Source of the DNA: Candidatus Omnitrophota bacterium
GTDB lineage: Bacteria > Omnitrophota > Gorgyraeia > Zapsychrales > JBDRMG01
Assembly: GCA_043812495.1 (NCBI GenBank)
Contig: JBDRMG010000016.1
Coordinates: 66,137-130,136 of the forward strand
DNA length: 64,000 nt
Reading direction: 5' to 3'
Shown here: positions 12,709 through 47,809 of the stretch, piece by piece
Position numbering within the stretch: the first letter of the stretch is position 1
Layout of the letters: each line of letters starts with the position of its first letter
Program-made: the position numbers and the translations under genes
Notes under the pieces: generated by a model
What the model saw: the letters and a program-made list of their open reading frames with translations, nothing else
The model's database searches: none
Told to the model about the DNA's origin: nothing

Positions 12709-15700
12709 TTATTTCAAATAGACATCAATACGGTCGGCCTTATTGTCGCGTATATCATTGGCAAAAGGCGAGGGGATAAAACCGGAAGATATTGTGACGG
12801 GGTCGCGGTGATCGGCGTACGCAATAACAATACGCTCAATCGACGCTTTGTTGTCGCCGAACGTATCCCGACGCTTGGGATTATGATAAACCACCAAGGT
12901 CGAGCCGAGAAAATTAAAAGCATAGGTATTTTTGGGAAGGACGATTTCCCGCTGAAGGCGATTTTTATCAAAATAAATTGTCTTTGTTTCTTGTTTTGTG
13001 AATAGCCACTTGGGCAATACCGGTTTAAACGCTAGTTCAAGATTTCCTTTCGGATCCAAGAAAAATGGAGCATCTCCCACATTCATCAAAAGCCAAATAT
13101 GCAGCCATTCGGCGGTGGTTCCGCTCAATCGTGCTACAAATCCACGGCCATGAAGACTTGCGTCTTCGTGGGCGCTGCTGACGATAAAGGAGGAACTCTC
13201 CAAAATACTGCGGCCGTATTTCTTCGGATCCATAAAAGGCACAAGAGTATATTTAAAATTCTTATAAAACTCGTCATACAATCCGAATTTGAGCAATTCA
13301 AGAAGGAATTTGTTCTCCATATGCATCCAGATCGATTGGTTCTCAAGCCAGCCCGCCGGAAAAACACTGGCCCGCCCGATCTCGGCTGATTCGCGGGATA
13401 AATCGTCATTGACGCGGTACATCTTGAGTTTTTTATCAAACAGAGGGCTGTGGCGGACGTTTTGATAAAGAGTGCGCGCCTTGATCTGGTCGTTCTGCAC
13501 TCTCAGGGCATGGACAAATCCTTCCAAGAAAAGAGGCAAAGCTTTTTTCTGGAAATTCAACGGGACAATATATGCGAGGCCGTCGGGATTAACCTTGTCC
13601 AATGTTTCATAATCTGTGATTTCATGGATAAAATAGGTCACGCACAAGCCATGCTTATTTTGGGCCAAGGCAATGGCTTTATCCGTTTTTTGGATCACCA
13701 GCTGCAAGAACCGGTCAATGACCGAAACAGGCATGGACCGTTCGACCCCGTCAATGCCTTGTTCCGTGCGGCGTCGATAATGTTCCTTGATTTCGTTGGA
13801 GTGACGCCAATAGACCAGCGGATCTTTTTGCGTAGTCAACAAATCATTGAGCCCGGAAATAAAACTCAAAAGTTCGTCATACATCCGCACTTCGGTGTGT
13901 CCATCCAGTTTCATGTCTTTGAATGAATGGCGGATGAACTGACAAAGCCTTTTCAGCTCAAATGTCTCGGAAATGGATGACCCCATCAGGCCCGGTAAAC
14001 CGTTGAGGGCGTCATACCAATTGGGCTTGTCCGCTTCCATTTCGATACCGACTCCGCTGGGATCAAGGGTGGCGGCTTTATTCGCCACAAGACACAAGAG
14101 CTTAACGAGGAGGCACGTAAAATAAACCGGGCCCTGCCCGCCATTGGTCCTGAGCTTATGGTCAAAAGCCTCCGTTACGACTTCATGACCTTTATCCACG
14201 ACAGAATGATATTGCCGGGGACCGTGATTCGTCAAAACATACCTTTGGTCCCGGGGCAGCACATGATGGGTATTGTGATAAAAGCTGAAGGCTTTTTTGT
14301 TAAGAAGCAGATTTCGTCTTTCTTCCGGATAAAGAGCGAGAAAGCGCTCGATCAAATCGAGATTATAAGTCCAGTGATCGGTCCAAAATCCTTCGCCGTG
14401 TTCAGCCAGTTCATGTTTATGGCAATAGCTCAAGAGTTCCTTCAAGAACTTCTGAGGTGACGTTTTGAGTTTTATATCATAATCATCGATTGACTTCAAA
14501 AGCGCCCCAGGGCAAAAACCTACTTTCAGAAGTTCTTTGACAAAATTTTTTCCTCGGCCAAGGATAAATTGATTAACGATGGCCTCGATCCTTGCCGGAC
14601 TGTCCAAAGAGAAAACATTCCCCTTGATGACTAATGGATTATACCCGTCGGCTTGAATCAGGCTCAGGAAATTCACGATATGGTTGTCTTTGACATCACG
14701 GTTAAACCACACGTCGTTGCGTCTGTTTTGGTTGACATCACGGTAATTTCCGTTGCCTTGAGAAAGATAGGTGGGATTCAGAATAAAATTATTGTAGTCG
14801 CGCTCAAGATCTCCGTGCTTACGGCTGTAGACATTAAAAACAATTTTTCCCTCTTGGGTCTCAAGCGCAAGAGGCAAGCCTCCGCGCATAACGTTATCCA
14901 AAAAGGTCTGTTGGCAATATTGATTGAAGGCCGCTGAGGAGCTTGACGTAAAGCAGTTATTTTTGATCTCTTGGATAAGGCGTTGATTTTCTTTGGCTTT
15001 ATGATCAATAAAATTTTTATTTCTTGCGCGCGCCAGTATTTTCTGAACCATAGCCACGGAATGCGTATGGCCAAACAGCGAAGTGATTCTTTCTTTCTTT
15101 TTTCCAGGCAAAGCAAAAGAGGCAAATGTCATGGCGCACAAAGAACGATTGCTGCTTTTTTGTTTCAAGGGAACTTTGAAAAGATTCCGGCCCATAAAAG
15201 CTTCGGGCACAAGAAAGTCGGTTGAATTGCCAAACACACTCAGAGGATCAATGATCGGATTCAACGGTTTTGGTTTCCGGCCTTCGTGCAAAAGACTAAA
15301 ATAAAAATGGCCTTCGCTGATGGATTTGACCTGCGGCCGGTCCGAAATAACCACTTTGAGATTATAATAGGGGGCTTTGTTTTCGAGATTCAAAACCTGT
15401 TTCCATGCTTCAACGGTGTGCGAAATATCTTTTTGCAGGCGGTCGATTAAACCGAACGGAATAATCTCCGGCATCCCGTCAATGACCTCAAGCGTTACTC
15501 TTTTTGTTCCAACATTTTCGATGGTGACATCCCGCACCAAAGCGGCATAGGGCTCTTCAGGTAAGGTAAAATAATTGACACGAACCACCAGCCCCAAGGT
15601 CACATTGGTCTCTTCAATCGTTAAATCATGGGAGGTGATCATCATCCGCTGCTTACGCTTAAATGCCCCGTTGGAAAGATTGTTCTGAAATGGTTCGTAA

Positions 15701-15996
15701 AGAATGGGTTTTCGCCCCTTTTTGATTTTAATGAATGTCCGGAAACCCTGTAAAGACGTTAACCGGTAAGCCTTGTTGGCCGGTTGGAATTCCATAATCG
15801 CCTTGTCTTTTCCTTCAACGCCGAAGCTAGCGATGCACTGGCCGCGGTTGACCGTGAACACCCACATGGGGATGCCCCAAAGACCGGCGATGCCCGGGAA
15901 GAAATTGCTGAAGGGCTCGGCATCATTATAATTCTCAATGATAAACCGGCCTTGCTCATCAAGATAATAGGATACGTTTTTTGCTTTATTCTTCAT
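12709..15996 (-). CDS. Large (1095 aa) GH94-like glycoside phosphorylase / six-hairpin glycosidase family protein (COG3459-like).
   Basis: The motifs GNGNYRDVNQNRR and FWTDHWTYNLD resemble the GFRDSNQD and DWND catalytic motifs of cellobiose/chitobiose phosphorylases. The assignment is tentative. Confidence 0.4.
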   Translation of the reverse strand: MKNKAKNVSYYLDEQGRFIIENYNDAEPFSNFFPGIAGLWGIPMWVFTVNRGQCIASFGVEGKDKAIMEFQPANKAYRLTSLQGFRTFIKIKKGRKPILYEPFQNNLSNGAFKRKQRMMITSHDLTIEETNVTLGLVVRVNYFTLPEEPYAALVRDVTIENVGTKRVTLEVIDGMPEIIPFGLIDRLQKDISHTVEAWKQVLNLENKAPYYNLKVVISDRPQVKSISEGHFYFSLLHEGRKPKPLNPIIDPLSVFGNSTDFLVPEAFMGRNLFKVPLKQKSSNRSLCAMTFASFALPGKKKERITSLFGHTHSVAMVQKILARARNKNFIDHKAKENQRLIQEIKNNCFTSSSSAAFNQYCQQTFLDNVMRGGLPLALETQEGKIVFNVYSRKHGDLERDYNNFILNPTYLSQGNGNYRDVNQNRRNDVWFNRDVKDNHIVNFLSLIQADGYNPLVIKGNVFSLDSPARIEAIVNQFILGRGKNFVKELLKVGFCPGALLKSIDDYDIKLKTSPQKFLKELLSYCHKHELAEHGEGFWTDHWTYNLDLIERFLALYPEERRNLLLNKKAFSFYHNTHHVLPRDQRYVLTNHGPRQYHSVVDKGHEVVTEAFDHKLRTNGGQGPVYFTCLLVKLLCLVANKAATLDPSGVGIEMEADKPNWYDALNGLPGLMGSSISETFELKRLCQFIRHSFKDMKLDGHTEVRMYDELLSFISGLNDLLTTQKDPLVYWRHSNEIKEHYRRRTEQGIDGVERSMPVSVIDRFLQLVIQKTDKAIALAQNKHGLCVTYFIHEITDYETLDKVNPDGLAYIVPLNFQKKALPLFLEGFVHALRVQNDQIKARTLYQNVRHSPLFDKKLKMYRVNDDLSRESAEIGRASVFPAGWLENQSIWMHMENKFLLELLKFGLYDEFYKNFKYTLVPFMDPKKYGRSILESSSFIVSSAHEDASLHGRGFVARLSGTTAEWLHIWLLMNVGDAPFFLDPKGNLELAFKPVLPKWLFTKQETKTIYFDKNRLQREIVLPKNTYAFNFLGSTLVVYHNPKRRDTFGDNKASIERIVIAYADHRDPVTISSGFIPSPFANDIRDNKADRIDVYLK

Positions 15997-19122: not shown

Positions 19123-20148
19123 TTATTCGACGAGTTGAATGTCGATTTTGACTTTACCCTGAACAGCCCTGACAGACGGTGAGTAAAAAGGCTTGGCATC
19201 TTTAATCATATAGCCTTGATTCCCGTTTAATAGGGCAATGCGGTCGCGTTCTTCTTGCGCGGCGATATGGGCCAAATGGGCCTCGCGCCGAAGATCTCTG
19301 ATTCTCAAGCGGATATGCCGATTCTTATTTTTATTGACGGAAATGGCGTATTGACCTTCATCTAAGCTCCTGATATCGCCGTTTAATATTCTCATTTCTT
19401 CCGCAAGGACAGCTATCTGTCTGCCGAGTTCATCATTTTTCCTTCTCATGTCGCTAATTTTTTCGTTTAAACCCTGAACCACGGAAGCGTTCTGCGCTTG
19501 AGCCTTCGCGAGCATATCCTCCGTCTGAACCAATAAAGCTTTGGCGGCATTCAAATCTTTGGACATATACATAATCGCGTCTTCTTGAATACGATTCTGA
19601 TCAAGGGCACTCGCATAAAGACTCGCTTGACCTCGCGCGTTGGCCAACATCAGATGATTGGATCTTTCGATTTCTCGATGAATAATCGCCTGCTGAATAA
19701 AGTAAACAGCCAAGAGCGCAACCATAATCGCAAAAAGAACAACGCCGATTCTCGTTTTGATGCGCTCGGCACCCTCAATCCGCGCTATTCTGTTTTGAAT
19801 CTTCTCTTTCAGGCGAAGGGCGATATCCTGAGCCGGATTCACAAATTCGATTCCGCACAGACTTCGGGATCCCAAGCGTTGCGGCCGCGCCCAAACCATT
19901 CGCCCAACAGGCGGCAAGAAGTCGACGGGTCCCTGTTTTGGCATTTCAAAAGCAAGAATGCTGTTTTGCGCAAAAGACACCTTGACATCGGTCTCAAGCA
20001 TCATGCCTGTTTCGCTTAAGTTTCTCACGCGCGCCGTCCCATCAATAGCCTGATCCTTAAAATGCCACGTCACGGGAAAACGCTCATTGATCCGGAAGCT
20101 TCTTCGAGCCTCCACGCGATACATCGGTGATTTGCTTAATAATCCCAT
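19123..20148 (-). CDS. PilZ-domain c-di-GMP-binding protein with a central transmembrane helix and a coiled-coil region.
   Basis: RRSFR...NLSETG are the PilZ RxxxR and D/NxSxxG motifs. A hydrophobic segment (IGVVLFAIMVALLAVYFI) follows, then a heptad-rich segment. Start was set at the ATG at 20148, which has a GGGGG Shine-Dalgarno. Confidence 0.65.
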   Translation of the reverse strand: MGLLSKSPMYRVEARRSFRINERFPVTWHFKDQAIDGTARVRNLSETGMMLETDVKVSFAQNSILAFEMPKQGPVDFLPPVGRMVWARPQRLGSRSLCGIEFVNPAQDIALRLKEKIQNRIARIEGAERIKTRIGVVLFAIMVALLAVYFIQQAIIHREIERSNHLMLANARGQASLYASALDQNRIQEDAIMYMSKDLNAAKALLVQTEDMLAKAQAQNASVVQGLNEKISDMRRKNDELGRQIAVLAEEMRILNGDIRSLDEGQYAISVNKNKNRHIRLRIRDLRREAHLAHIAAQEERDRIALLNGNQGYMIKDAKPFYSPSVRAVQGKVKIDIQLVE

Positions 20149-20156
20149 TTTATTTA

Positions 20157-20306
20157 CCCCCTTCAATGACGACACAGCTTATGGAGTCCGCCATTGTTTC
20201 TGTGTCTGTGGCGGACGACATAAGTTGTTTGTCGGAATTGAATCCTTGACAATTTTTGAAATATGGGTGGATATCGCAAGCAACCGAATATCAAAAATTG
20301 TCAAGG
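20157..20306. repeat. C-type hairpin repeat (20157-20235) followed by a perfect 16-bp inverted repeat, CCTTGACAATTTTTGA ... TCAAAAATTGTCAAGG (20244-20306, 31-bp spacer).
   Basis: Read directly from the sequence. The repeat lies in the PilZ gene 5' region and contains TTGACA on both strands. Confidence 0.6.
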
Positions 20307-21383: not shown

Positions 21384-23261
21384 CTACTTAAAAATTGCAT
21401 CCAAGACGCTATCAATCAGTTTTTCTTCCGAACTTTTCTCTTCCTGCGGCTGCGGCTCTTGGTCTTGGGGTGTTGTTTCTTGAGTTGATTGACCTTCTTG
21501 CGCCGGCTGCTCTTTTTCGTCTTTTCCGAGAACCTTTTGAAGGACTTTCTGCAACTCTTCTTTACCGTGCTGAACAATAATCTTTTTTCCCAGATATTCC
21601 AAGTCCGGCATATAGGAAAAATCCGGGATTTGTCCTTTGATTTTTGCGGGGATATAAATTTCTCCATTGTCATCAAGCAAATATTCCAATTCGGGTGTCG
21701 CCTGGACCATGCTGTCGGATAAATCCTGAGGAATCGATAGGCCAACGCTTAACGACAGCTGACGATCCAAGTTAAGGGTTCCTTGGCCCGTAATCATAAA
21801 AACATTTGTCTCGACTTGGGCACTATCAATATTAAGATTACGGCCGGACAATGTTATTTTAAGAGTGACCTTTTTAAGTGGCGTATCTTTTTCTTTGAGC
21901 TTGTCCTTGTATTTTTGCGGAAGATTCTCTTCTAATTTTTCTACAAGGCGCGGCAGCATGGAAATTTTGCTTAAAAACACCTTCAGGACATTGATATTCA
22001 CGAGCTTTCCATCCTGAACGTTAAGCTCGCCCTGCCCTGTCAGCGAATTCAGCGCGGCATCGGCATTCAGACCGTATCCTCCCATATCCATCTGACCCGA
22101 AAGTTTGCCTTGCAGTTCAACCGGTTGATTACCCTTGGGAATAAGTTGAGATAAATCGAGCTGATCGATTTCCATCATTACATCAAAGGCCTGTTTCTGC
22201 ATATAATCGACAATCGCTCCGTTCATTTTGATTTGACCGGAGGCCAAAGGTAAATTGGCTTCTTTAATGACCATATCTTTTTCGTTGATTTTGAATTTCA
22301 CGAGAATTTTCTCCAAAGGAAACGGGGCGCTCTTGATGCTCAGGCGGCCCTCTTGGAGCGCGCCGTCAGCAAATAATTTTGTCAGCCCCGATCGATTGAG
22401 CGTGATTTCATCGATAGCCATACTCAATTGGCCTTCAAAGCCTTCCTGAAAACCAACACCCTTGACCATGGGGATAGATGCTTCGAGTTGCTCAAGGGAT
22501 ATTTTAGATAAATCCGAATCGATTTTGATATTTCGGAAATGAACGGCGAGATTTCTCACGTCGACTTCCAGCGTGCCCTTGGCTGTGATGTTCTTCCATG
22601 AGCTAAAAACGGAACCCTCTAGGTTAAAGTCAATCGGTTCATTGAGCGAGAAATTGTCCACGGATAAGTTCAAGTTCTTGGCCTCGATAGCGATGGGCTC
22701 TTCAAGGGATTGATCGATAAAGGTGACCATGCCATCACGCAAGCGAAAGGATTTAACAAGAAGGGTGGACAGCGCCTTACTGGCTGTTGACATTTGCGAA
22801 TTGAATTTTGACGCAATCCCTGAAGAGGGTTCTTCGGAAGTTGTCTTCTCATCCTTTTGGGAAAGACCTTGAGTGTTGATCTGGCCCTTAGCATCACGGA
22901 TAATATTAATTTTTGGAGACACAAATTCAATACTTAAGATACTGATTTGTCTTGTTTTGATAAGGGTTTGAAGATCCAGGCCTAGCTGAACATCTTCTAT
23001 CGTTAAGAAATTTTCCTTTGAGAAGGCGGCATCATCAGCCAAAGCTAATTGATGAATATTGAGGGTAATGCCCTGCAAAAAAGAAATGTCTAATTGAATC
23101 TTACCGATGGCAACATCGCGACCGACAGACCGGCTGATTTCTTTGGTAATCTGGGTCCGGTATTTGTCGGCGTCAAAAGTACGCACAAACACAACAAGGC
23201 CGATGAAGGCAACGACTAGGATCATGCATAATACGAGAAAGAAAACCTTGAGAAATTTCAT
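21384..23261 (-). CDS. AsmA-family outer-membrane biogenesis protein with an acidic low-complexity C-terminus.
   Basis: An N-terminal transmembrane helix followed by AsmA-like repeats (DVAIGKIQLDISFLQGITLNIHQLALADD). A GGAGG Shine-Dalgarno precedes the ATG at 23261. Confidence 0.7.
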   Translation of the reverse strand: MKFLKVFFLVLCMILVVAFIGLVVFVRTFDADKYRTQITKEISRSVGRDVAIGKIQLDISFLQGITLNIHQLALADDAAFSKENFLTIEDVQLGLDLQTLIKTRQISILSIEFVSPKINIIRDAKGQINTQGLSQKDEKTTSEEPSSGIASKFNSQMSTASKALSTLLVKSFRLRDGMVTFIDQSLEEPIAIEAKNLNLSVDNFSLNEPIDFNLEGSVFSSWKNITAKGTLEVDVRNLAVHFRNIKIDSDLSKISLEQLEASIPMVKGVGFQEGFEGQLSMAIDEITLNRSGLTKLFADGALQEGRLSIKSAPFPLEKILVKFKINEKDMVIKEANLPLASGQIKMNGAIVDYMQKQAFDVMMEIDQLDLSQLIPKGNQPVELQGKLSGQMDMGGYGLNADAALNSLTGQGELNVQDGKLVNINVLKVFLSKISMLPRLVEKLEENLPQKYKDKLKEKDTPLKKVTLKITLSGRNLNIDSAQVETNVFMITGQGTLNLDRQLSLSVGLSIPQDLSDSMVQATPELEYLLDDNGEIYIPAKIKGQIPDFSYMPDLEYLGKKIIVQHGKEELQKVLQKVLGKDEKEQPAQEGQSTQETTPQDQEPQPQEEKSSEEKLIDSVLDAIFK

Positions 23262-23580
23262 TAATATCCTCCACATTTATTTAAGCTTAAAACCGGTGAA
23301 CCATACGGGAGCTATTGTACTTCTTGAACCCTTAAGAGTCCACATCTTTTTCATGGAAAACTGCCAGAAAATTTGTTTTAAAAAGATTAACGCAAAAGTT
23401 TATTGCTGCTTTTTAGGGCGCTCTCCTAACATTATATTTTATCGTAGGTTATGCATTTTAAGAAAACGCTTGTACAAAATACTATTTTTTTCAAAATAAA
23501 TTTGGCAACCTTGACAATCATGGTATATCCTTTCAGTAGATGCAACCACTTGCTCTTTGTAGAAAATAATCGTTCCATAT

Positions 23581-23905
23581 GACGATAAAGGCAAACCCGT
23601 TGTGAAACGGGGGCCCCGGCTTCGCCAAATATTTAACATGTTTGGCTTCGCCGGGCCCGGCATAGCTGAATGCGAAAGCAATTCAGCGAAGCCGGGGCAA
23701 AGCCAAGGGTCCTAATCAAATTTAAACAGGACAGCCTGGCTACCGAATCAAGAACGTTTTGACGATAAACCCTATATAAGGGTCCGGCGTAGCTAAACGC
23801 GAAAGCTTTTTAGCGAAGCCGGAGGCTAACTCGCTGTAAAGCGAGGGCGCAAAGTCAAGGGTCCTATGATGAGGGACGGCCTGGCTGCCGAATCAAAACA
23901 AACGG
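23581..23905 (+). ncRNA. Candidate structured RNA or cis-regulatory leader. Two tandem ~180/145-nt units each begin with GACGATAAA and contain a conserved hairpin, CCGGC-RTAGCT..GCGAAAGC..AGC-GAAGCCGG.
   Basis: The direct repeat runs 23581-23760 and 23761-23905. The inner stem differs between the two copies by compensatory changes (GCTGAAT/ATTCAGC versus GCTAAA/TTTAGC). A plus-strand intrinsic terminator follows. Confidence 0.35.
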
Positions 23906-23917
23906 GTCAGTAAATTT

Positions 23918-23953
23918 AGCCTGTTTCCCTGCAATAGGAAACAGGTTTTTTTA
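23918..23953 (+). terminator. Rho-independent terminator (CCTGTTTCC-CTGCAAT-AGGAAACAGG followed by T7).
   Basis: A perfect 9-bp stem plus a U-run sits 25 nt upstream of the RBS of the next gene. Confidence 0.6.
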
Positions 23954-23993
23954 TTGGGCAGCCCCAAGAAACACAAAAAGGAGGTTGGTTAAA

Positions 23994-24920
23994 ATGAGAA
24001 AACACGCAGTCATAACTTTTTTATTTATCGCTTTATTTGTGATGGGAACAACAGTCGCAGCTTTGGCAGGAACAGGCGGCTATACAAAGAATTCGAGCAG
24101 CGGTGGTGCCAGTGGTAATGCCGACATTGTTCCTACTGGTGTTTGTGGTGACGCGGATAACAATGGCGGAATAGACATCGATGACATGATCCTTGTCTAC
24201 GCGTATATTTTTGCCGGTGGCGAAGCGCCTTCATTCTATCTTCAAGCTGACGCGACGGGCGATGATGCGGTAGACATTGATGACTTTCTAAGATTACAAA
24301 ATTACATATTTGGTCAAGGGGAAGCGCCTGCATGTCACAAGTATGTCAGCTGCCTCGATTACAACGGAAATGGAAGAGTCAATACAAAAGACTTGGAAGT
24401 CCTGATAGCCTATATTTTTCAGGGCGGCGATCTGCCGGCTGGCGGCGATGCCACCGGAGACGGCGTGATTGACGTCGATGACTATGCGCAGGTCTTGATC
24501 CCTTACCTTTCCGGCACAAAACTTTTACCACCTTTGTGCGGAAGCAGGGCATTTTACCCTTGCTTGGATGCTACCAATGACGGTCAATCAAGAGAAGATG
24601 ATGTGGAAGCGATCATCAATGCAATTTTCAATGGTCAACCGCTTCCACCAAAAGAGCGCGCAGATTGTACCGGTGATGGCATTGTAGATATTGATGATGT
24701 GAGCTTTGCTATTGACTTTCACTACAATAATGGTCCAGAGCCAGTATGCTCATCGACAGGATTCCTAACACCATCTTCTGTTGAATCCTATTGCGGTGAT
24801 GGCATTTGTAATGGTGCCGAAACATGCGCAACTTGCTCAATGGACTGCGGCACATGTCCTGCTCCAGAGCCAACACCATCTGCCTCGCCTTCTACAACAA
24901 CCAGTACTATGCTTAGATAA
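23994..24920 (+). CDS. Secreted protein with six dockerin-type-I-like calcium-binding repeats and a Cys-rich Pro/Thr/Ser C-terminus.
   Basis: A signal peptide (MRKHAVITFLFIALFVMGTTVAALA) is followed by DADNNGGIDIDD, DATGDDAVDIDD, DYNGNGRVNTKD, DATGDGVIDVDD, DATNDGQSREDD and DCTGDGIVDIDD loops, each followed by an aliphatic helix. An AGGAGG Shine-Dalgarno lies upstream. Confidence 0.7.
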   Translation: MRKHAVITFLFIALFVMGTTVAALAGTGGYTKNSSSGGASGNADIVPTGVCGDADNNGGIDIDDMILVYAYIFAGGEAPSFYLQADATGDDAVDIDDFLRLQNYIFGQGEAPACHKYVSCLDYNGNGRVNTKDLEVLIAYIFQGGDLPAGGDATGDGVIDVDDYAQVLIPYLSGTKLLPPLCGSRAFYPCLDATNDGQSREDDVEAIINAIFNGQPLPPKERADCTGDGIVDIDDVSFAIDFHYNNGPEPVCSSTGFLTPSSVESYCGDGICNGAETCATCSMDCGTCPAPEPTPSASPSTTTSTMLR

Positions 24921-24947
24921 GATCGCAACCATGACACCTAAGCTTAA

Positions 24948-24990
24948 GGGCCCCCGCCATTGAATCAATGGCGGGGGCCCTTTCCTTTTA
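24948..24990 (+). terminator. Intrinsic terminator hairpin (GGGCCCCCGCCATTGAATCAATGGCGGGGGCCC followed by a T-rich run); this is an A-module variant.
   Basis: A perfect palindrome lies 28 nt after the stop and is followed by TTTCCTTTT. Confidence 0.65.
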
Positions 24991-25013: not shown

Positions 25014-25370
25014 CTAAATCGACAAAAACAGCGCACCGATCACTATTTCTATGCCAGCCCAAAGACGAAAGAACTTCATGGGCTGCTTCAAGAACCAATC
25101 ATAGATATGAACGGCTGCCTTCGCTTTTAAGAAAAAGAATCCTTTGAAGACGGCAATAAGACCCAAAATGAAGATGAACTTGGCTAGGACGCCATGAAGA
25201 TTCCCGGCGGCATTCATCAAAAGCACGCCCACAGCAAGGGCCAAGACAAAAATCCATCCGCGGACCTGTTTATAGCTCTTTTTCTTCAACCGATTGCGCA
25301 AATACTCCGGTTTAATTAACCACAGAATTCCCGACAAAATCCAAATCCACCCGAGAATTTTGAGAATCAT
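25014..25370 (-). CDS. Small integral membrane protein (hypothetical).
   Basis: Four predicted transmembrane helices. Overlaps the upstream gene by 4 nt. Confidence 0.4.
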   Translation of the reverse strand: MILKILGWIWILSGILWLIKPEYLRNRLKKKSYKQVRGWIFVLALAVGVLLMNAAGNLHGVLAKFIFILGLIAVFKGFFFLKAKAAVHIYDWFLKQPMKFFRLWAGIEIVIGALFLSI

Positions 25371-32615: not shown

Positions 32616-35486
32616 TCAGTGGACACTAAGCATCTTGCAATACTTATTAAAATTTACATCCGTATTCTTCAATAATGCCCAACCTGTTATGCTCACGCCT
32701 GGCAAATCGGCAGGAGGCAAGCTGCCGGTCAAATAGTCCGATTCCCATTTAAATTCCGATGGAATAGAGCCAATATCGAAAGGGAACTTCCCTACCGCCC
32801 CTCCACCGCACCAGTCATTGACTTCATTGCAATATTCTGAACATCCTCGGCAGGATTTCCAATAGAAATCTAAAAAATAGTAAGTATCATAATGTTGATA
32901 AAATCCCTGCGTATCGGGGCCATTCAAACATTCCTCTTGCGTGCAACTTCGGTTATAGTCACTCAAGAGCCATCCATAATCATAAAATTCCATAGGGTCA
33001 GTCGGATCGCTGGGATCATCCTGAAAGAGAGAATTCGGTAATTTAAATAATGTGCCGGTAAATGTCTTGCCATAATGTTTATAATCTTCATTTTTGTCTT
33101 CCCAATCATTCTTCCAGTTCCAAAGCTCAAGAGTGGTGTTATAAAAAAAGTTTCCTAAATCAGCCGCGTTATCTCCAATAATAGAAATCCTGTATACTTC
33201 ATCCTGCATAACCCTATTGGGCATAGGATCAGCCGTTCCTTCTTTGTGGGCGTTTCGCCATGCCGAATGGACCGGTTCTTCTTCATTTTCCTCAGTATCT
33301 GGGTCGTCTATGTAAAAAATATCCGGGTGATTTCCGAGCTCCGGTATTTCTTTGGGAAAATCAAAATCGCGCGAAAGAGGAAAAAATTTTTCCCTCGCTA
33401 TAACAGAGGCGGGGACATAATTCTCCGTATTTATGCTCCCTATGGCATAGGCGTTTCCCTCTGTAACAACAGTTAATCCGCCATCCATTAATTCTTGCGC
33501 ATGAGAAAGACCTACATCCCAATCCGAGTAAGCCACATTCTCTTTGGGTGCCGGTATTACTCCTTGGCCAATGGCTTTATTTAAATTCTCAATATCAACA
33601 AGAACAAGCGAATGCCACAGCGAACTCATTGTATTATAGAAACCTTCCTTTTTAAAAATGACCACGTCTGCAGGTGAACCGTCAACATCAATGGTGACCT
33701 TGATTTCTCCGTATTCATCCGGCACACGTTCAAAAATTTCTGTCTCACCGGTAATTTTCACCTTATAATTTCCAACGGTCCCTCCCGTACTATCTAAAAG
33801 ATTTTCTTTCAGATAATAAAGTTTTTGAAAATGGCGTCCTTCAAAATTTCCGGAACTGTTAAAGCTAGCGCGATCTACCGTGTTTTCAATAAGAATTCCT
33901 TCGTCTTTAGCCATGTTTCTGAGTCTTTTGGCGCTCACGATAGGGCTTGCGATGCTTGTCGCGCCTGTAGAGCTATCGAGTAAAACGCCTTGGAGAACAC
34001 CGCCTTCAGTGGTCTCTAGAAACTCGGCCCAATCATCGGCTTGATATTCTGTATTTAAGAATTTGACTTCTGGGCAAAAACGTTCATCGGTGCATGTTGT
34101 TTGAATATCATCCGGATTATAATCATTGGGCGGGAAAAAAGAGTAAGCTTTAGTGTAATTATCCGTGTAGGTCTTGCGTCCCATGATACCGTCTTGTGCG
34201 TATCTTGGCCACCGCCATTCTGTGTCCAATCGATTCGGTATTTTGACTGTTGTCGGAGTATCTGGATCATACGGTGTTATGAGAGCAGGATCATAAAGAT
34301 TACTTCCCGTCGGCGTATTATACATATACTTTTCGGGATAGAGGATGGGATCAAGGGGGCGCCACGTATAACCATCTTCCACCACCCCAATTTTATCCCG
34401 ACAGCCAGCGAATGTGCCGGTCGTTCCTTTTTCGCACAATAGACCACCTCGATCTCCGGATAAATAGCCATTATATTCATTGATCCATTTATTAGGATCA
34501 TAATATTTTAGACGAGGATCTGAGGCGTTGACATCAAACATGCAATCATCCGGGTCTAGCCAAGAAGCCGAACAAGCACCGGTTCTCCAATTTGTTGTTC
34601 CGTCAGAACGATCAATGCCATATAATTCAGCCCAGGTTTTATAGCTGACGTGTGGTTCTCGCGTAAAGTAATTATCCGCGACTGTTTTGTTATTCTCATC
34701 CACGCACATACCTGTCCAGCCATCGCGCGCGCAGGAGATAGATCCTGCCGCCGCAGGAACTGCATCAAGATCAACCATCGGAGTGAAATAAAAATTATCC
34801 ATTTTTTGCTTAAAATATTTTGCCGTGCTCAATTGTGAGATATTTTTAATTTGAGTACCTCCAACAAACGTTATATTCTCATTCGAATGAATCCTTCCTC
34901 CTGCAGCATCATAGACTGTTACGCCATCAAAATTTATGCCAGCTTCCGGATAGAACATAAAATAATCATAGAGAGAACCCGTTGAGACCCTTGCCGCTAA
35001 AAGTCTTTCTTTGTTTCCGCTTATTCCTTTGATTAAAACAATCTTGTTTTTGGTATCAACGCAATCGTATGTTGCGCAAGGGATCGCGTCGTTATAGATT
35101 TTCGCCACGAATTGTATTGGTTGGTCTTCTTGAGACGCGTAGCCCTCCTCTGTTAACTCATTGAGGTCTTCCAGCACGATAACCGGAGCTTGGGCGCCGG
35201 TAACTTCAGAATAATGGATGAGTTGCTCTGTATTAATATCAACAAAGTGTGTAACCCAGTTATCGGAATCGGGAGAGGAATTTTTCAATTCCTCAATGAC
35301 ATACTCCAGGCCGCGTTCAGCCGCATAAAGAGCCTTCATGGAATTATCATCGTGGCCAACCGATATTTTCTCGCCAATGGATTTTAAAAATTGCGCTCCG
35401 GATAAACCAAGAAAAATGACTGTCGCCGCAATTACGGTGAGAATAAGCCCTTGGCCTTTCTGATTTCTTAATGTGTTAAGTGTCAT
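32616..35486 (-). CDS. Large secreted PilX-like / putative pilus tip-associated protein (956 aa).
   Basis: The N-terminus (NQKGQGLILTVIAATVIFLGLSGAQF) resembles the PilX N-terminal pseudopilin-like helix. The rest is Asp/Gly/Tyr/Trp-rich with no known catalytic motif. A GGAG Shine-Dalgarno precedes the ATG at 35486. Confidence 0.45.
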   Translation of the reverse strand: MTLNTLRNQKGQGLILTVIAATVIFLGLSGAQFLKSIGEKISVGHDDNSMKALYAAERGLEYVIEELKNSSPDSDNWVTHFVDINTEQLIHYSEVTGAQAPVIVLEDLNELTEEGYASQEDQPIQFVAKIYNDAIPCATYDCVDTKNKIVLIKGISGNKERLLAARVSTGSLYDYFMFYPEAGINFDGVTVYDAAGGRIHSNENITFVGGTQIKNISQLSTAKYFKQKMDNFYFTPMVDLDAVPAAAGSISCARDGWTGMCVDENNKTVADNYFTREPHVSYKTWAELYGIDRSDGTTNWRTGACSASWLDPDDCMFDVNASDPRLKYYDPNKWINEYNGYLSGDRGGLLCEKGTTGTFAGCRDKIGVVEDGYTWRPLDPILYPEKYMYNTPTGSNLYDPALITPYDPDTPTTVKIPNRLDTEWRWPRYAQDGIMGRKTYTDNYTKAYSFFPPNDYNPDDIQTTCTDERFCPEVKFLNTEYQADDWAEFLETTEGGVLQGVLLDSSTGATSIASPIVSAKRLRNMAKDEGILIENTVDRASFNSSGNFEGRHFQKLYYLKENLLDSTGGTVGNYKVKITGETEIFERVPDEYGEIKVTIDVDGSPADVVIFKKEGFYNTMSSLWHSLVLVDIENLNKAIGQGVIPAPKENVAYSDWDVGLSHAQELMDGGLTVVTEGNAYAIGSINTENYVPASVIAREKFFPLSRDFDFPKEIPELGNHPDIFYIDDPDTEENEEEPVHSAWRNAHKEGTADPMPNRVMQDEVYRISIIGDNAADLGNFFYNTTLELWNWKNDWEDKNEDYKHYGKTFTGTLFKLPNSLFQDDPSDPTDPMEFYDYGWLLSDYNRSCTQEECLNGPDTQGFYQHYDTYYFLDFYWKSCRGCSEYCNEVNDWCGGGAVGKFPFDIGSIPSEFKWESDYLTGSLPPADLPGVSITGWALLKNTDVNFNKYCKMLSVH

Positions 35487-35522
35487 GCTCTTCTCCAAAT
35501 CTTGTTTTAGGTAATATCATAC

Positions 35523-36332: not shown

Positions 36333-37226
36333 TTAATTGCTTAAATTGCGAAGGCGCACAACTGAGGAAAGGCTAAAAAGAGTTTGATTGCCGAAAAGAT
36401 TGGGCCTGGATAATTCCAAAAACACTTGGACGGTCTCAGGAGGCGTCGTGGCGCTGCCCCCTGTCCCCGGGCCAGGAGTTCCAAGAAAATAAATGGCGCT
36501 GATATCCGTAGCGATAACACGGACCGAATACCTCGAAGGATTGGCCAAAAAAGGAAAGGGATTATACTGGGAGATATCAGGAGCTGTTTGCGCAAAGGCG
36601 AGGCCGGGACGAAAGAGCTCTTCCAGCCAATTATTAAAAAATGCGCAATCGCCGCCCGGCGGAGGAGCCGGGCAATTAGCTGGAGTTTCTCTGGGAGGTT
36701 CGCAAATACCATCTCCGCACACAATTTGATTTCTTGTCAACCGAATTAATCGATTGGCATTGCTTCCAAATGGACCCAGGGTATGGGGAACCATATAAAT
36801 AATTCTTTCATCATCATACATGACTTCGCGTCCGTCATAGCCCCATTTGATAGGATACGCTGATCCTACTAAAGGCTTAAATATGCTTCCCTGGATATCG
36901 CAAGCAGTCGTCCCGCAGCTTGTCGCGACCGGAACGCGGAACTCCACCGCTCCGCCGACACAATACTGGTCAGGACACTTGTAGATTTTAACTTGCGCCG
37001 ATGCTGACTGGGCAAGCTCAGCAGTGACGCGCTCCATGGCCAGTCGCGCATGCTGCTGCAAATCGATTTGGGTGGAGCTGCGAAAATAGGTATTGCGGAT
37101 GACGACAATCGTTCCAATCAGGCCGATACCGATAAAAATAGATATGGCCAAGACCGTCATGATCTCGACAAGCGTAAATCCCCGTCGATTGAATTTTATA
37201 AATCCTTTATTGAAAAATAAACGCAT
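36333..37226 (-). CDS. Type IV pilin-like / pseudopilin protein (prepilin-type N-terminal cleavage/methylation domain).
   Basis: NRRGFTLVEIMTVLAISIFIGIGL is a class III signal peptide with the G|FTLVE motif. The C-terminal part is Cys-rich. Confidence 0.65.
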   Translation of the reverse strand: MRLFFNKGFIKFNRRGFTLVEIMTVLAISIFIGIGLIGTIVVIRNTYFRSSTQIDLQQHARLAMERVTAELAQSASAQVKIYKCPDQYCVGGAVEFRVPVATSCGTTACDIQGSIFKPLVGSAYPIKWGYDGREVMYDDERIIYMVPHTLGPFGSNANRLIRLTRNQIVCGDGICEPPRETPANCPAPPPGGDCAFFNNWLEELFRPGLAFAQTAPDISQYNPFPFLANPSRYSVRVIATDISAIYFLGTPGPGTGGSATTPPETVQVFLELSRPNLFGNQTLFSLSSVVRLRNLSN

Positions 37227-40770: not shown

Positions 40771-43101
40771 TTATAGATAATAATCTTGTCGTGTCTTCAG
40801 AGGCTTTTCGCGCGTGAAAGTGAATTCCTTGTTTGCCTTTAAGATTCGGTTTTTGCCGAAAATATCAATTTTCTCTTTCCTCTTGCCCTTCGATACCATC
40901 TTGATGCGCACCTTATTATTTCTGGCATCAACGTGAAACAGGCTATTGCGCCAGACAAACGAACAGGTGATTCGGCGCCAGGCATGCGGCATGCGCGGAT
41001 CAACCGACAACATATTGTGACGTACCCGTACGCCTGCAAAACCATTCACAACGACCTGCCAGGTTCCTCCTAAGGAAGCCGCATGAATCCCTTCGTGAGT
41101 ATTGCCGTGCAAATTGCTGATATCGGCCCTTAAAGCCACATTGAAAAACTGATAGGCGCGGCTCAAGGCCCCGGCCTCAATGGCCATCAAGGCATGAATG
41201 GCGGGGCTCAGCGAAGATTTATGCAGAGTCCGGTTGGCATAATAAAAGAAATTGCTCTCTTTTGTTTTGTCGTTAAATTCGTCCCCAAAAAGATAAAGAA
41301 GCATGAGGACATCCGCCTGTTTGACAAATTGCGTCTTATTGTAATCTTTGACCTTAATGCCGTCGGGCAGAAGCGGAATGAAGTTTTCGTCAAAATTCAC
41401 GATTTCGATGTATCGCTTCTTGAAGAATCCGTCAAACTGCTCGATCACCTTGTCTTCCCTGATATTGAGATGAATCTTCTGAGCCATCGTTTTGAAGCGA
41501 TTGATTTCGGCGGGAACCAAATTGATGTCTTTGGTAAGACGCACAAATTCCTTGGGATTGAATTTCTTGAATTCAAAATACAATTTGTTGGCGATCAGCA
41601 AATTCCATCTGGCCATCCAATTCGTAAAGGCATTATTGCTGACATGCTCGTGGAATTCATCCGGACCGATGACATCTTTGATTTCGTATTGATTCTTTTT
41701 GTTGCGCTCTAAGCGGCTCGCCCAGAATCGCGCGGTTTCAAAAATTATTTCGCAACCGTATCGGCTCATAAAATCGATATCGGAGGTGATGGTAAAATAC
41801 TGATTGCAGGCAAAGGCAATATCAGCAGTGATATGCTGCTCTTGCTTGTTGGTCTTAATTTGAATAATGGTACCGTCTAAGTTTCTGGCCCACGTGGGTG
41901 TTTCTTCTTCGCCCGTACCGGCCGACTCCCAGGGAAACATCGCACCTTTATACCCTCTCTTTTTAGCGATGGCCCGTGCCTGCTCAAGCCGTTGGTATCT
42001 ATACAAAAGCATATTCTTGGCCACTTGCGGGCAAACATACGCATAAAAAGGAACCATAAAAATTTCCGCATCCCAGAAAATATGGCCCCGGTAACCCTCG
42101 CCGCTTAAGGTCCTCGCGCCAATACTTGAGAACCCTTCATCCACGCGAGCGCAGATCAGCATATGGTAGATATTGAATCGAAGGTTCTTCTGGATGCTGG
42201 CCGTTCCTTCAATCACAACGTCGGCCACATCCCATAAGGCATGCCAGGCCTCACTATGCTTCTTAAGTAGGCTTTGGAACCCGGATTTAAAGACTTTTTG
42301 AAAATGCTTCTTGGATAAATTTTTGTTCTTTTTTAGTTCCGCGGGATCATTATCAAGAACCGAAATATAAAAAACTTTCGTAAATGTAATCGACTGACGT
42401 TTTTTAAGCTTTAGCTCAAGGATATTATCCGGCGCATAAACCTTTTGCCCGCCTCTTCTGTAGGTAAATCCGCTGCGAAAGAGAATCAGGTGTTTTTTCT
42501 CAAATGTCTGCGCGACCAGAAATCCGGAATTATCTTCCTGCCCGATTTCTTTAACGCGAAAATGCTTCTTTTGTCCTTCCGTGACCGTCCCGGCATTGAC
42601 AACGGATGTGTCAATTCCTGTATGAAGCTCGATCTCAGCCGCATCATCCAAGGGGGTTAAAACAATTTGCATCACACCGATATTCTTATCCGCCATCGAA
42701 ACAAATCGTATGGACTGATAATCATAGCGTCTTTTCTTGCTATCCACATAAACGGTGTGTCTTGTCAAAAGCCCATCGCGCATATTCAGGATGCGCTTAT
42801 GCTCCAGAACATTCATGGCTAAAATGTCCAGCTTTTCGCCATTGACGGTGAATTTGAAATTAAAAAGATTGGGCAGGTTGACCAACTCGGCCACTTGAGA
42901 TGTTATGCGGTCGTAGATACCGGCTAAGTACGTACCCGGAACTGCGCCGGGTGGGATTTCTTCCAGGACGGCGCGTACGCCCATATAGCCATTACCCAAG
43001 GAAAGTTGGCTTTCCCTGATGGCCTGCAGAGATTTATGGAAACCTTCTTCCCTGATACACCAAAGGTCTTCGTTCGTGTATTTCGCGTAAAAATCCTTCA
43101 T
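40771..43101 (-). CDS. GH65-family glycoside phosphorylase (kojibiose/trehalose/maltose phosphorylase-like).
   Basis: SLGNGYMGVRA (N-terminal beta-sandwich) and EGYRGHIFWDAEIFMVPFY (catalytic (alpha/alpha)6 region) match GH65. Confidence 0.8.
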   Translation of the reverse strand: MKDFYAKYTNEDLWCIREEGFHKSLQAIRESQLSLGNGYMGVRAVLEEIPPGAVPGTYLAGIYDRITSQVAELVNLPNLFNFKFTVNGEKLDILAMNVLEHKRILNMRDGLLTRHTVYVDSKKRRYDYQSIRFVSMADKNIGVMQIVLTPLDDAAEIELHTGIDTSVVNAGTVTEGQKKHFRVKEIGQEDNSGFLVAQTFEKKHLILFRSGFTYRRGGQKVYAPDNILELKLKKRQSITFTKVFYISVLDNDPAELKKNKNLSKKHFQKVFKSGFQSLLKKHSEAWHALWDVADVVIEGTASIQKNLRFNIYHMLICARVDEGFSSIGARTLSGEGYRGHIFWDAEIFMVPFYAYVCPQVAKNMLLYRYQRLEQARAIAKKRGYKGAMFPWESAGTGEEETPTWARNLDGTIIQIKTNKQEQHITADIAFACNQYFTITSDIDFMSRYGCEIIFETARFWASRLERNKKNQYEIKDVIGPDEFHEHVSNNAFTNWMARWNLLIANKLYFEFKKFNPKEFVRLTKDINLVPAEINRFKTMAQKIHLNIREDKVIEQFDGFFKKRYIEIVNFDENFIPLLPDGIKVKDYNKTQFVKQADVLMLLYLFGDEFNDKTKESNFFYYANRTLHKSSLSPAIHALMAIEAGALSRAYQFFNVALRADISNLHGNTHEGIHAASLGGTWQVVVNGFAGVRVRHNMLSVDPRMPHAWRRITCSFVWRNSLFHVDARNNKVRIKMVSKGKRKEKIDIFGKNRILKANKEFTFTREKPLKTRQDYYL

Positions 43102-46527: not shown

Positions 46528-47809
46528 AAAGCGTTAACTGACCTTCCGAAACATTGCGCTCTTCATTAGAGAAGATGTTAATCTTTCCGTATTCTCCGTC
46601 ATAACCGGCCGCAATATTGACTTTTCCTTCGCGCATACGCTTGATGCCTTCGGCCACAAGCGAACCGCCGGCTTTTTTGATTTCATTGATGGACGCATCC
46701 TGCAGAATAAACATTTCGTTGCCGAGCTTGGCGAGCATTTCGCCAAATGTTAATTGCACCGCTTTTGAGTTTGCTCCCATGCCTTTGGCTTCCGCAATGA
46801 TTTCCGGCAAAGGAATTAAGCTGCAAAAGACGCGGCCATTGGGTGATTTTCGACCCATGGGGTAATCCGCCAATTCTTCAACTCTGGACATAACGCCGAC
46901 CGTGACAGACTTTCCGCACTTCGGGCACAATCCTTTGCTTTGAATTGTTTCTTCGGGGTTCATGCGCATCTGGCAATCACGATGCCCGTCATAATGATAT
47001 TTACCTTCTTCCGGAAAGAATTCGACCGTTCCTTCCAGTCCTTTATGATCGGCATCTTTGAGGGCATGATAAATTCCTGCATAGGAAAAATCCGTATCAT
47101 ACAGTGTGGATTCGCGCCCAAGCTTCTCGGCGGAATGCGCATCGGAATTGGAGACAAGGACATATCTGTCTAATTGGCTTAAGCGCCAATTCATAGCAGG
47201 ATCGGATGAAAGACCGGTTTCGAGAGCAAAAATATGTTCGCAAAGATCTTCGAAGCATTCTTCAATCGAATTAAATCCACTTTTGGATCCCAACACGGAG
47301 AACCACGGCGTCCAGATATGAGCCGGAATAAGATAGCTTAGGGGATCGGATTCCAAAACAATTTCCAATAAATGCTTCGCATCCAAACCCAGAATAGGCC
47401 GGCCGTCTGAATAGATATTCCCGATCCCCTGAAGTTTTTTCTGAATTTTTTCCGCAGCTTCAAAGCTAGGCGCGAAGATCACATTATGGACTTTGCGGAC
47501 CTTATCATTCTTTTTATAAATATTGGATATTTCGGCCGAAAGAATAAAACGCACTTCCTTTTGGCAGGCCAACGGGCATTCCCTTTGGCTTAAGGAATCA
47601 TATTCGTTTTTTAGCTTAAAAAATCCTTCTTGGGCACACTCAAGCTGTGTCTTCAGTTCTTCTAACCAGCCGGGGTGCGTAAAGTCGGCAGTCCCTACGA
47701 CCTGCATTCCTTTGAGTTGCGCCCAAAGATTTAAGCGGGCTAAATTTAAATTTTTACTTGTCGCGCGGGAAAAACGGGAATGGAGATGAGTGTCGGCGTA
47801 GAATTTCAT
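46520..47809 (-). CDS. PHP-domain nuclease of the TIGR00375 / endonuclease Q-like family, with a C4 zinc finger and a C-terminal helix-hairpin-helix.
   Basis: The N-terminus ADTHLHSRFSRATS is a PHP metal-binding motif. CPKCGK is a zinc finger. There are further His/Asp ligands. The 3' end overlaps the helicase start by 8 nt. Confidence 0.55.
   Translation of the reverse strand: MKFYADTHLHSRFSRATSKNLNLARLNLWAQLKGMQVVGTADFTHPGWLEELKTQLECAQEGFFKLKNEYDSLSQRECPLACQKEVRFILSAEISNIYKKNDKVRKVHNVIFAPSFEAAEKIQKKLQGIGNIYSDGRPILGLDAKHLLEIVLESDPLSYLIPAHIWTPWFSVLGSKSGFNSIEECFEDLCEHIFALETGLSSDPAMNWRLSQLDRYVLVSNSDAHSAEKLGRESTLYDTDFSYAGIYHALKDADHKGLEGTVEFFPEEGKYHYDGHRDCQMRMNPEETIQSKGLCPKCGKSVTVGVMSRVEELADYPMGRKSPNGRVFCSLIPLPEIIAEAKGMGANSKAVQLTFGEMLAKLGNEMFILQDASINEIKKAGGSLVAEGIKRMREGKVNIAAGYDGEYGKINIFSNEERNVSEGQLTLFE

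Follow-up and report, generated by a model that had tools for sequence, protein, structure and literature searches.

A tandem c-di-GMP-I riboswitch leader upstream of a predicted exported, enzyme-free three-dockerin protein in an Omnitrophota bacterium

The 64,000-nucleotide stretch of Candidatus Omnitrophota contig JBDRMG010000016.1 that we analyzed (its whole length is here called the window) carries on its forward strand a gene for a 308-residue protein made of dockerin modules, and we consider it probable that this locus is a self-contained gene, gated by cyclic diguanylate (c-di-GMP), for an exported, enzyme-free three-dockerin protein. Ahead of the gene, the structured leader consists of two tandem c-di-GMP-I (RF01051) aptamers on the plus strand, as identified with Rfam. 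Moreover, a unit composed of a divergent AsmA-family gene, one or more c-di-GMP-I aptamers, a terminator, and a Cys-bracketed multi-dockerin gene is conserved in the clade. Proteins and loci outside the window are cited below by our own P and L numbers, and the features of the dockerin gene and its product are as follows.

23980..23984, plus strand: Shine-Dalgarno sequence GGAGG, read from the sequence
23994..24920, plus strand: coding sequence of the 308-residue, predicted exported tri-dockerin protein (open reading frame (ORF), Pfam, AlphaFold2 (AF2), and Foldseek)
23994..24068, plus strand: predicted signal peptide, residues 1-25, ending in AALA with GT following, of signal peptidase I type and without a lipobox Cys, read from the sequence
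24144..24335, plus strand: dockerin module 1, residues 51-114, bracketed by Cys51/Cys114, with loops at 53 and 86 and a predicted local distance difference test score (pLDDT) of 89-97
24351..24539, plus strand: dockerin module 2, residues 120-182, bracketed by Cys120/Cys182, with loops at 122 and 152 and pLDDT 73-82
24561..24749, plus strand: dockerin module 3, residues 190-252, bracketed by Cys190/Cys252, with loops at 192 (degenerate) and 224 and pLDDT 90-95
24792..24857, plus strand: six-Cys knot CGDGICNGAETCATCSMDCGTC, residues 267-288, read from the sequence
24858..24917, plus strand: Pro/Thr/Ser-rich C-terminal tail, residues 289-308, with pLDDT below 50

The coding sequence opens with an ATG at 23994, which has the GGAGG placed 9 nt upstream, and its 308-residue product is identical to a protein at NCBI from a metagenome-assembled genome (on a contig of 132,652 nt), which is entered there as 'dockerin type I domain-containing protein [Candidatus Omnitrophota bacterium]'. 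With MRKH, a hydrophobic core, and ALA followed by G, the N-terminus resembles a predicted signal peptide for signal peptidase I, and N-termini of a similar type are found in the relatives. Further along, a regular-expression scan located six loops, each of 12 residues and rich in Asp (first residues 53, 86, 122, 152, 192, and 224), a pattern far beyond what chance would give; five of them fit the canonical D-x-[DN]-x-[DN]-[GD]-x-x-[DN]-x-x-D pattern; loop 5 (DATNDGQSREDD) is degenerate and has an Arg at loop position 9. In the AF2 model, a helix comes after each of the six loops. From an alignment with two relatives in the Omnitrophota assembly L001 (GCA_964515035.1), we observed that the Asp residues at loop positions 1 and 12 are invariant in all six loops, as are Cys51, Cys120, Cys190, and Cys252. 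In the window protein, the Cys pairs 51/114, 120/182, and 190/252 flank three modules of about 63 residues each. The earlier note on this DNA had described six loop-helix repeats making up three dockerin modules, and this description agrees with the loops found by the scan, the helices of the AF2 model, and the three stretches matched by Dockerin_1. It had also placed a Cys-rich segment and a Pro/Thr/Ser tail after the modules, and these we locate at residues 267-288 and 289-308. The six-Cys knot has no Pfam family and is modeled with low confidence by AF2, and its motif recurs in proteins P0076 and P0099 and in a pilin-like protein of the window (36333-37226). Given its pLDDT of below 50, the tail is probably disordered. 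Here, we noticed that the protein ends in TMLR (24906-24917) and that its relative P0194 ends in TLLR, both after a Pro-rich tail; this ending is absent from P0101 and P0002, and it could be due to chance or be a C-terminal sorting signal. The mature protein is strongly acidic (net charge of about -31, with 11% Asp), and neither Pfam nor NCBIfam shows any other domain, whether catalytic, carbohydrate-binding, or anchoring, in its 308 residues.

As for the identity of the repeats, Pfam Dockerin_1 (PF00404) matches with 43.6 bits against a cut-off of 22.9 (E 3.3e-11) in three stretches, the best of which (residues 86-141) extends from the second loop-helix segment of module 1 on into module 2. 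The EF-hand families all score below their own cut-offs, these being EF-hand_7 (PF13499; 25.9 vs 30), EF-hand_1 (PF00036; 21.1 vs 25.4), and EF-hand_6 (PF13405; 20.2 vs 25), and TSP_3 gives no Pfam match at E<=10. Likewise, NCBIfam dockerin_GC (NF041540) covers residues 193-238 with 24.4 bits, under its cut-off of 29. By these scores, the EF-hand, thrombospondin type 3 (TSP3), and GC-type dockerin identities are ruled out. Since Dockerin_1 alone passes its cut-off, with the EF-hand families below theirs and TSP3 without a match, the repeats are dockerin-type and not generic EF-hand or thrombospondin type 3; the better scores for these other repeats, which the earlier note had itself named as grounds for giving up a dockerin identity, did not appear. 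In the Protein Data Bank (PDB), the top sequence match is the Clostridium thermocellum double dockerin Clo1313_0689 (8x39/8x3a), and below it type I dockerins make up most of the matches, a few EF-hand proteins scoring weakly among them; the dockerin and double-dockerin chains align to residues 41-108.

The structural comparison gave a similar outcome. Our AF2 model, which was built from a 30-sequence alignment, has a mean pLDDT of 70.9, with modules 1 and 3 scoring above 90, module 2 at 73-82, and the Cys knot and tail below 50. Foldseek ranked the double dockerin first among PDB structures, and type I dockerins fill nearly all of ranks 4-29, with target-normalized TM scores of 0.72-0.84 (one of 0.51) and root mean square deviations of mostly 1.3-2.7 Å over 56-68 columns; the E-values of these matches are weak because the domain is small, and the query is a predicted model. 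Most of the matched dockerins are from cohesin-complex structures. The structure prediction proposed in the earlier note has thus borne out its assignment, in that the modules superpose on solved type I dockerins. Here, a comparison can be made with the Ruminococcus flavefaciens ScaA dockerin, for which a non-covalent clasp of the N- and C-termini is described (PMC3821032, in part): the Cys pair of each window module is a probable disulfide clasp, which would replace the non-covalent one of the ScaA type.

The leader and the end of the transcription unit contain the following elements.

23578..23756, plus strand: aptamer 1 including its P1 flanks, with an 82-nt helix-closed insert (RF01051 at 23667-23747, 35.8 bits with a cut-off of 35)
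23615..23696, plus strand: insert of aptamer 1, between the P1a 3' strand (GGGGC) and GCAAAG, closed by an 11-bp helix CCCGGCUUCGC/GCGAAGCCGGG
23755..23902, plus strand: aptamer 2, with a 7-bp P1 (GUUUUGA/UCAAAAC) and a 54-nt insert in the 5' junction (RF01051 at 23814-23892, 54 bits)
23770..23823, plus strand: insert of aptamer 2, with two hairpins, the second of which (23784-23822) is homologous to 23657-23695
23901..23927, plus strand: candidate alternative hairpin (AAACGGGU.../...AGCCUGUUU), directly next to P1, in which the 5' strand of the terminator would be sequestered
23918..23952, plus strand: intrinsic terminator belonging to the expression platform, with a stem of 11 bp, a loop of 8 nt, and a U7 run, between aptamer 2 and the ribosome-binding site
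24946..24982, plus strand: 3' intrinsic terminator after the stop codon, its stem of 17 bp including 12 G-C pairs

What the earlier note had called a structured leader can thus be specified as a c-di-GMP-I riboswitch that has tandem aptamers and a single intrinsic terminator. Aptamer 1 has a minimum free energy (MFE) of -77.9 kcal/mol (z -6.5), and an alternative parse (23581-23748) scores 38.6 bits with RF03167. Once its insert is removed, this aptamer aligns column for column with eight other aptamers, and intact aptamers (50-65 bits) occupy its position in L001, L108, and L114. In fact, the nine aptamers from the four sources align, RNAalifold independently recovers the two-arm fold from them, and all six P1a pairs show compensatory changes on both sides. 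A G at the G20 column, CGCAAAG, and CCGAA are present in both window aptamers; we take the numbering of the ligand contacts (G20, A47 in GCAAAG, and C92 in CCGAA) to be that of the Vc2 structure. The c-di-GMP-I-GGC variant (RF03167) was considered and rejected, with 56.1 and 38.6 bits against a cut-off of 59, and with an A in the window CGCAAAG where the variant consensus CGCGAAG has a G; because this cut-off is missed and the motifs are standard, the pair is filed as c-di-GMP-I. In the MFE fold, P1 of aptamer 2 is present, and for aptamer 1 RNAfold pairs G16-G17 with the CC of ACCGAA, this not being the canonical GC closing pair. By eye, the two P1 helices adjoin, with the 3' strand of the first (GAACG) leading into the 5' strand of the second (CGUUUUGA), an arrangement that would allow stacking and a cooperative response.

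The inserts themselves merit description. Those of this lineage are 35-82 nt long, are helix-closed, and interrupt the aptamers at three different sites; they lie at 23615-23696 and 23770-23823 in the window, at about 2812-2846 in L108, and at about 3801-3862 in L114, and excising them leaves a canonical c-di-GMP-I aptamer. The second aptamer of L114 has its insert at the site used in window aptamer 1. In the window, the insert of aptamer 1 holds a P1a-like hairpin (23657-23695), which together with its relative at 23784-23822 makes up the only two copies there of a 39-nt hairpin. The two stems, when read from the sequence, differ by a compensatory G-C to A-U change, and the hairpin mimics the P1a arm in its order of elements (GC-AUA-stem-GAAA-stem-GAA-GC).

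Between the window aptamers there is no terminator, so both share one platform, and the single terminator after aptamer 2 and ahead of the ribosome-binding site therefore indicates control by transcription attenuation. Terminators after aptamers are found as well in L001 (two), L108, and L114. In co-transcriptional MFE snapshots that end at 23930-23937, the hairpin at 23901-23927 is formed, and the terminator then replaces it. With the tandem riboswitch leader at one end and the 17-bp terminator (24946-24982) at the other, the dockerin gene would thus be a c-di-GMP-gated single-gene unit, in keeping with the earlier note, which had read it as a single gene under dedicated control.

Five riboswitch-dockerin pairs were found in four sources, these being the window and three other Omnitrophota assemblies or samples. 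Each source has the AsmA-family gene as a syntenic neighbor of the riboswitch-dockerin unit, and in the window this gene is placed as follows.

21384..23276, minus strand: divergent AsmA-family gene (Pfam AsmA, 87 bits)

The window AsmA protein shares 45% sequence identity with its counterpart in L001 and 35% with that in L108, and L114 has the same arrangement. The nearest homolog of the dockerin protein is P0002 of L001 (26% identity), which has five modules and lies beside the divergent AsmA gene; two aptamers in tandem (65 and 66 bits) and a terminator come ahead of its gene. The next L001 gene codes for P0101, a tri-dockerin protein of 257 residues that is collinear with the window protein and shares its Cys brackets (24% identity, E 4e-18), and this gene comes with a single 56-bit aptamer and a terminator of its own. 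P0194 from L108 (GCA_964478715.1) has 298 residues and shows 28% identity to the window protein, with which it is collinear over residues 1-252 (E 1e-26); its leader contains tandem aptamers of 50 and 37 bits, and its neighborhood (AsmA, a 118-residue gene, and Memo/AMMECR1) matches that of the window. Lastly, P0136 of L114, beside AsmA, has a 62-bit aptamer and a second, insert-bearing one. As regards method, the one multi-module relative to emerge from a word-indexed homolog search was P0002. The orthologs P0101 and P0194, which that search missed, were recovered by an exhaustive HMMER scan of 1.84 billion representatives, as was P0136; repeat proteins of such low identity need exhaustive searching.

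The extent of this conservation was bounded from several sides. An AsmA alignment scan of genome contigs showed no riboswitch or dockerin gene upstream of AsmA at the distant Omnitrophota loci L003 and L004, and therefore the synteny is limited to the closer relatives. Among metagenome contigs, the aptamer pattern ACGATAAAGGCAAANNNNNNGTRAA gave 103 loci, none of which had a downstream dockerin-loop ORF in a crude ORF and regular-expression screen. A six-module dockerin protein of another genome (P0003) has no aptamer within 200 nt upstream, and no riboswitch accompanies the large poly-dockerin proteins with PG_binding_1 that other organisms have (P0133, P0134, and P0135). Two of these, P0133 (L111, 2950-6513) and P0135 (L112, 630-3650), are secreted proteins of 1000-1200 residues with about 11-16 Cys-bracketed dockerins plus PG_binding_1, and in L111 a second dockerin/PG_binding protein follows P0133. 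As a separate observation, the first aptamer upstream of P0194 (L108, 2687-2782) has an A and not a G at the G20 column, which is typical of GEMM-I variants that respond to cyclic GMP-AMP (cGAMP), and the aptamer pair of L108 could be a two-input gate for cGAMP and c-di-GMP.

Several points weigh against our reading of the locus, and these we take up in this and the following paragraph together with the explanations that they favor. Aptamer 1 is borderline, with 35.8 bits at a cut-off of 35, and its insert is in the junction beside the ligand pocket; in both window aptamers, the large inserts beside this pocket may impair binding. An explanation that we find doubtful is that aptamer 2 alone is functional here, with aptamer 1 a decaying relic broken by the 82-nt insertion and the leader in effect a single riboswitch. 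Removal of the helix-closed insert, however, restores every conserved core nucleotide, the insert at the same site in L114 argues that it is tolerated, and in the MFE fold the insert forms a separate domain with the P1a and P1b arms kept. Turning to the direction of control, aptamer and terminator coexist in the MFE fold of all five leaders, and giving up the terminator costs 3.3-10.4 kcal/mol in the best folds that lack it, the P1b apex always being paired there with the terminator apex. The P1b-terminator duplex energies beat dinucleotide shuffles with p values of 0.027-0.38, which as evidence of complementarity are modest and which combine to about 0.01, an optimistic value because the five leaders are related; for the P1a control, the combined p is 0.62. 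Moreover, the spacer can pair, by eye, with the aptamer 3' strand CUGGCU in five of five leaders. We also looked for an antiterminator of the classic kind, overlapping the 3' strand of P1, and no consistent one exists across the five leaders. Since such an antiterminator is missing and folding always keeps the terminator, the sign depends on the weaker evidence from complementarity. From this we lean towards c-di-GMP as an OFF switch, where a free aptamer would let the P1b arm pair with the terminator and so permit read-through, and where bound c-di-GMP would lock P1b and let the terminator form. The reverse sign, by which c-di-GMP turns the gene ON through anti-termination and the protein is made in the attached or sessile state of high c-di-GMP, we regard as a serious alternative, if the less probable of the two. 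In its favor, the hairpin at 23901-23927 adjoins P1 without a spacer, such that a ligand-stabilized P1 could stack on it and give read-through, and by biological precedent adhesins are usually induced by c-di-GMP. For instance, the Bc2 c-di-GMP-I riboswitch is situated in the 5'-untranslated region of the collagen adhesion gene cap in Bacillus thuringiensis (PMC4933901, in part), and tandem c-di-GMP-II riboswitches lie upstream of genes for putative surface anchor proteins (PMC9481103). On the other hand, the terminator has no overlap with the P1 3' strand and appears with the aptamer in every MFE fold, and the leaders of L001 do not show the abutting hairpin, their spacer pairing with the aptamer 3' strand. 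The complementarity of P1b and the terminator also implies a competition between aptamer and terminator, which is the logic of an OFF switch.

With respect to function, the most likely role would be that of a connector or adhesin that depends on Ca. Once the protein has been exported through Sec, every module would be stapled by a disulfide from its first to its last residue and loaded with Ca2+. Having three of them would make the protein multivalent, so that it could link partners, cohesin-like or other, that are situated on the envelope, within the matrix, or on a different cell. Supply would be switched sharply by the c-di-GMP level, and the two adjacent aptamers would make the response steeper. 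Set against this, the disulfide stapling is deduced from Cys spacing only, and a cohesin partner is conjecture. The earlier note had suggested a cohesin-dockerin-like surface assembly, and for this no partner came to light: Pfam finds no cohesin (PF00963) among 40 proteins of the window, which covers 64 kb of the genome. Also, genes for LpxB and AsmA in the window denote a diderm envelope, and therefore the Sec signal only guarantees the periplasm; we infer surface exposure, and the diderm host speaks against it. A Ca2+-dependent adhesin or matrix component that does without cohesins, its modules being rigid Ca-stabilized spacers or binding polysaccharide or host surfaces directly, would suit the lack of cohesins among the 40 window proteins, and we think it unlikely, though it deserves attention. 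In Zixibacteria, Micrarchaeota, and others, modules of this type also occur singly, in fusion with very diverse extracellular domains (TSP3, He_PIG, PKD, beta-helix, and peptidases among them), which suggests a general extracellular module, and the non-cellulosomal dockerins of giant Omnitrophota ORFs have been proposed as adhesins (Seymour et al., 2023; PMC10066038). Yet, every solved dockerin that our model matches is a cohesin-binding module, and P0096 joins this module type to a cohesin domain, so that cohesin partners do exist in such environments. The least probable explanation in our estimation, and a quite improbable one, is a periplasmic role as a Ca2+ buffer or an envelope-associated structural protein linked to the neighboring AsmA-family lipid-transport protein. 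For it speak the lipopolysaccharide genes (LpxB) of a diderm, the Sec signal as the one visible targeting element (Pfam, NCBIfam, and the sequence show no recognized outer-membrane sorting or anchoring signal), the AsmA synteny kept in four sources, and the high acidity (net charge of about -31, 11% Asp). Nonetheless, the AsmA and dockerin genes are divergent and under separate control, which would allow the synteny to be merely positional, and distant Omnitrophota AsmA loci are without the unit. Pro/Thr/Ser tails and Cys knots, moreover, are typical of extracellular proteins.

Other genes of the window bear on these matters to a differing degree, and those of note are listed here.

12709-15996, minus strand: GH161 beta-glucan phosphorylase homolog of 1095 residues, without a Pfam match (9h8v and 9qqk, E about 1e-210)
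19123-20175, minus strand: PilZ-domain protein (Pfam)
25014-25370, minus strand: hydrophobic protein of 118 residues, without a Pfam match, convergent to the dockerin gene
32616-35498, minus strand: protein of 960 residues with a pilin-like hydrophobic N-terminus, without a Pfam match, adjoining the pilin-like gene
36333-37226, minus strand: pilin-like protein with an N_methyl motif, carrying CGDGIC...E...C...DC as in the dockerin C-terminus
40771-43101: GH65, of phosphorylase type
46520-47809: Endonuclease Q homolog
47839-49617, minus strand: PAS-GAF-GGDEF diguanylate cyclase (Pfam)

As both a PilZ-domain and a GGDEF protein are encoded in the window, c-di-GMP signaling exists here, with synthesis of the messenger and its sensing by protein alongside the riboswitch. 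Of the three Pfam-less window proteins that were compared with PDB sequences, the one of 1095 residues is a homolog of GH161 phosphorylase and the one of 429 residues is EndoQ; for the 960-residue protein, there is no PDB sequence match. The earlier note had stated that no cohesin or glycoside hydrolase (GH) is fused or adjacent. This stands insofar as none is fused and no cohesin was found in 40 window proteins, but it needs amending for the phosphorylase-type genes of GH65 and GH161, which are 8-16 kb away. The 118-residue gene has a counterpart in L108 (3980-4336), its position is also kept in L109, and in the window it overlaps the upstream gene for a TPR protein by 4 nt.

Multi-dockerin proteins as such are not rare, since a profile scan with full HMMER returned 102 cluster representatives at E<=1e-30 (and 21,419 proteins at E<=1e-3). 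Hence, the description of an orphan multi-dockerin protein in the earlier note is right about the missing cellulosome context in the window, but the protein is less unusual than was implied. Peer and colleagues are said to have catalogued non-cellulosomal dockerin-like modules in 2009. Bacteria and archaea have thousands of such modules that are not part of cellulosomes, and what these do has been unclear since that catalogue. Against this background, the riboswitch offers a first clue, from regulation, to the role of non-cellulosomal dockerins. It is by c-di-GMP that bacteria signal the change between a free and an attached way of life, and with the tie to this molecule kept across several uncultured Omnitrophota, the protein should belong to a program of attachment or detachment. 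In practical terms, this is a minimal three-module protein with which to fish for partners. For the riboswitch field, the interest is in natural c-di-GMP-I aptamers with large tolerated inserts and in a layout of two aptamers and a single terminator. If Omnitrophota are host-dependent, as has been proposed, the protein could also bear on docking to hosts. A further-reaching idea, and one we hold to be rather unlikely, is that Cys-stapled tri-dockerins are the second-messenger-gated, enzyme-free connectors of a non-cellulosomal attachment system of cohesin-dockerin type in Omnitrophota. Were this so, the system might bridge the giant surface proteins of the phylum, the matrix, or host cells, a single riboswitch-controlled linker would allow the attachment apparatus to be assembled or dismantled, and a cohesin-dockerin assembly would for the first time be seen under the control of c-di-GMP.

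Among known systems, the closest by taxonomy are the giant 'Dockerin-type' proteins of Omnitrophota, with at least 30,000 residues (West-Roberts et al., 2023; bioRxiv 10.1101/2023.11.21.568195). Non-cellulosomal dockerins in such giant proteins are regarded as possible adhesins (PMC10066038; bioRxiv 10.1101/2023.11.21.568195; bioRxiv 10.64898/2026.06.07.730766), and neither c-di-GMP nor riboswitches are mentioned in these papers on Omnitrophota and non-cellulosomal dockerins. The giant proteins share with the window protein the phylum, the Pfam domain, and a proposed role in attachment or adhesion. In contrast, they are membrane-anchored and multi-domain (TSP3, discoidin, and enzymes), whereas the window protein has 308 residues and dockerins only. 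With the type I cellulosomal dockerins and Clo1313_0689, the common ground is a duplicated 12-residue Ca-binding loop plus helix in each module, and the Clo1313_0689 double dockerin also resembles the window protein in having several dockerins in tandem on one chain. Unlike cellulosomal dockerins, however, the window protein comes without an enzyme, a carbohydrate-binding module, or a scaffoldin and has no cohesin nearby, its modules are Cys-bracketed, and its gene is under a c-di-GMP riboswitch; the host, too, is a diderm Omnitrophota bacterium and not one of the cellulolytic clostridia. EF-hand and TSP3 repeats have in common with it the Asp-rich 12-residue Ca-binding loop followed by a helix, yet the fold matches that of dockerins and not that of calmodulin-like proteins.

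On the RNA side, the Bc2 riboswitch of B. thuringiensis and the known tandem c-di-GMP-I riboswitches are of the same aptamer class and have a platform of the terminator type, and as in Bc2-type systems, the downstream product is predicted to be exported and is probably adhesive. Tandem c-di-GMP-I riboswitches have been counted as 347 doublets and 12 triplets (Sherlock et al., 2022; PMC9481103). In that work, they are filed under 'multiple expression platforms', whereas the window pair appears to share one terminator. The window aptamers differ further from the known tandems in their large helix-closed inserts and in a product made of dockerins only. In the literature searched, no paper joins 'c-di-GMP riboswitch' and 'dockerin'; every component is known by itself, and it is the regulatory link and the small Cys-bracketed family that appear unreported. 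What is new, then, is the link between riboswitch and dockerin, the small protein family, the shared platform, and the insert-bearing aptamers, and not a new category of system.

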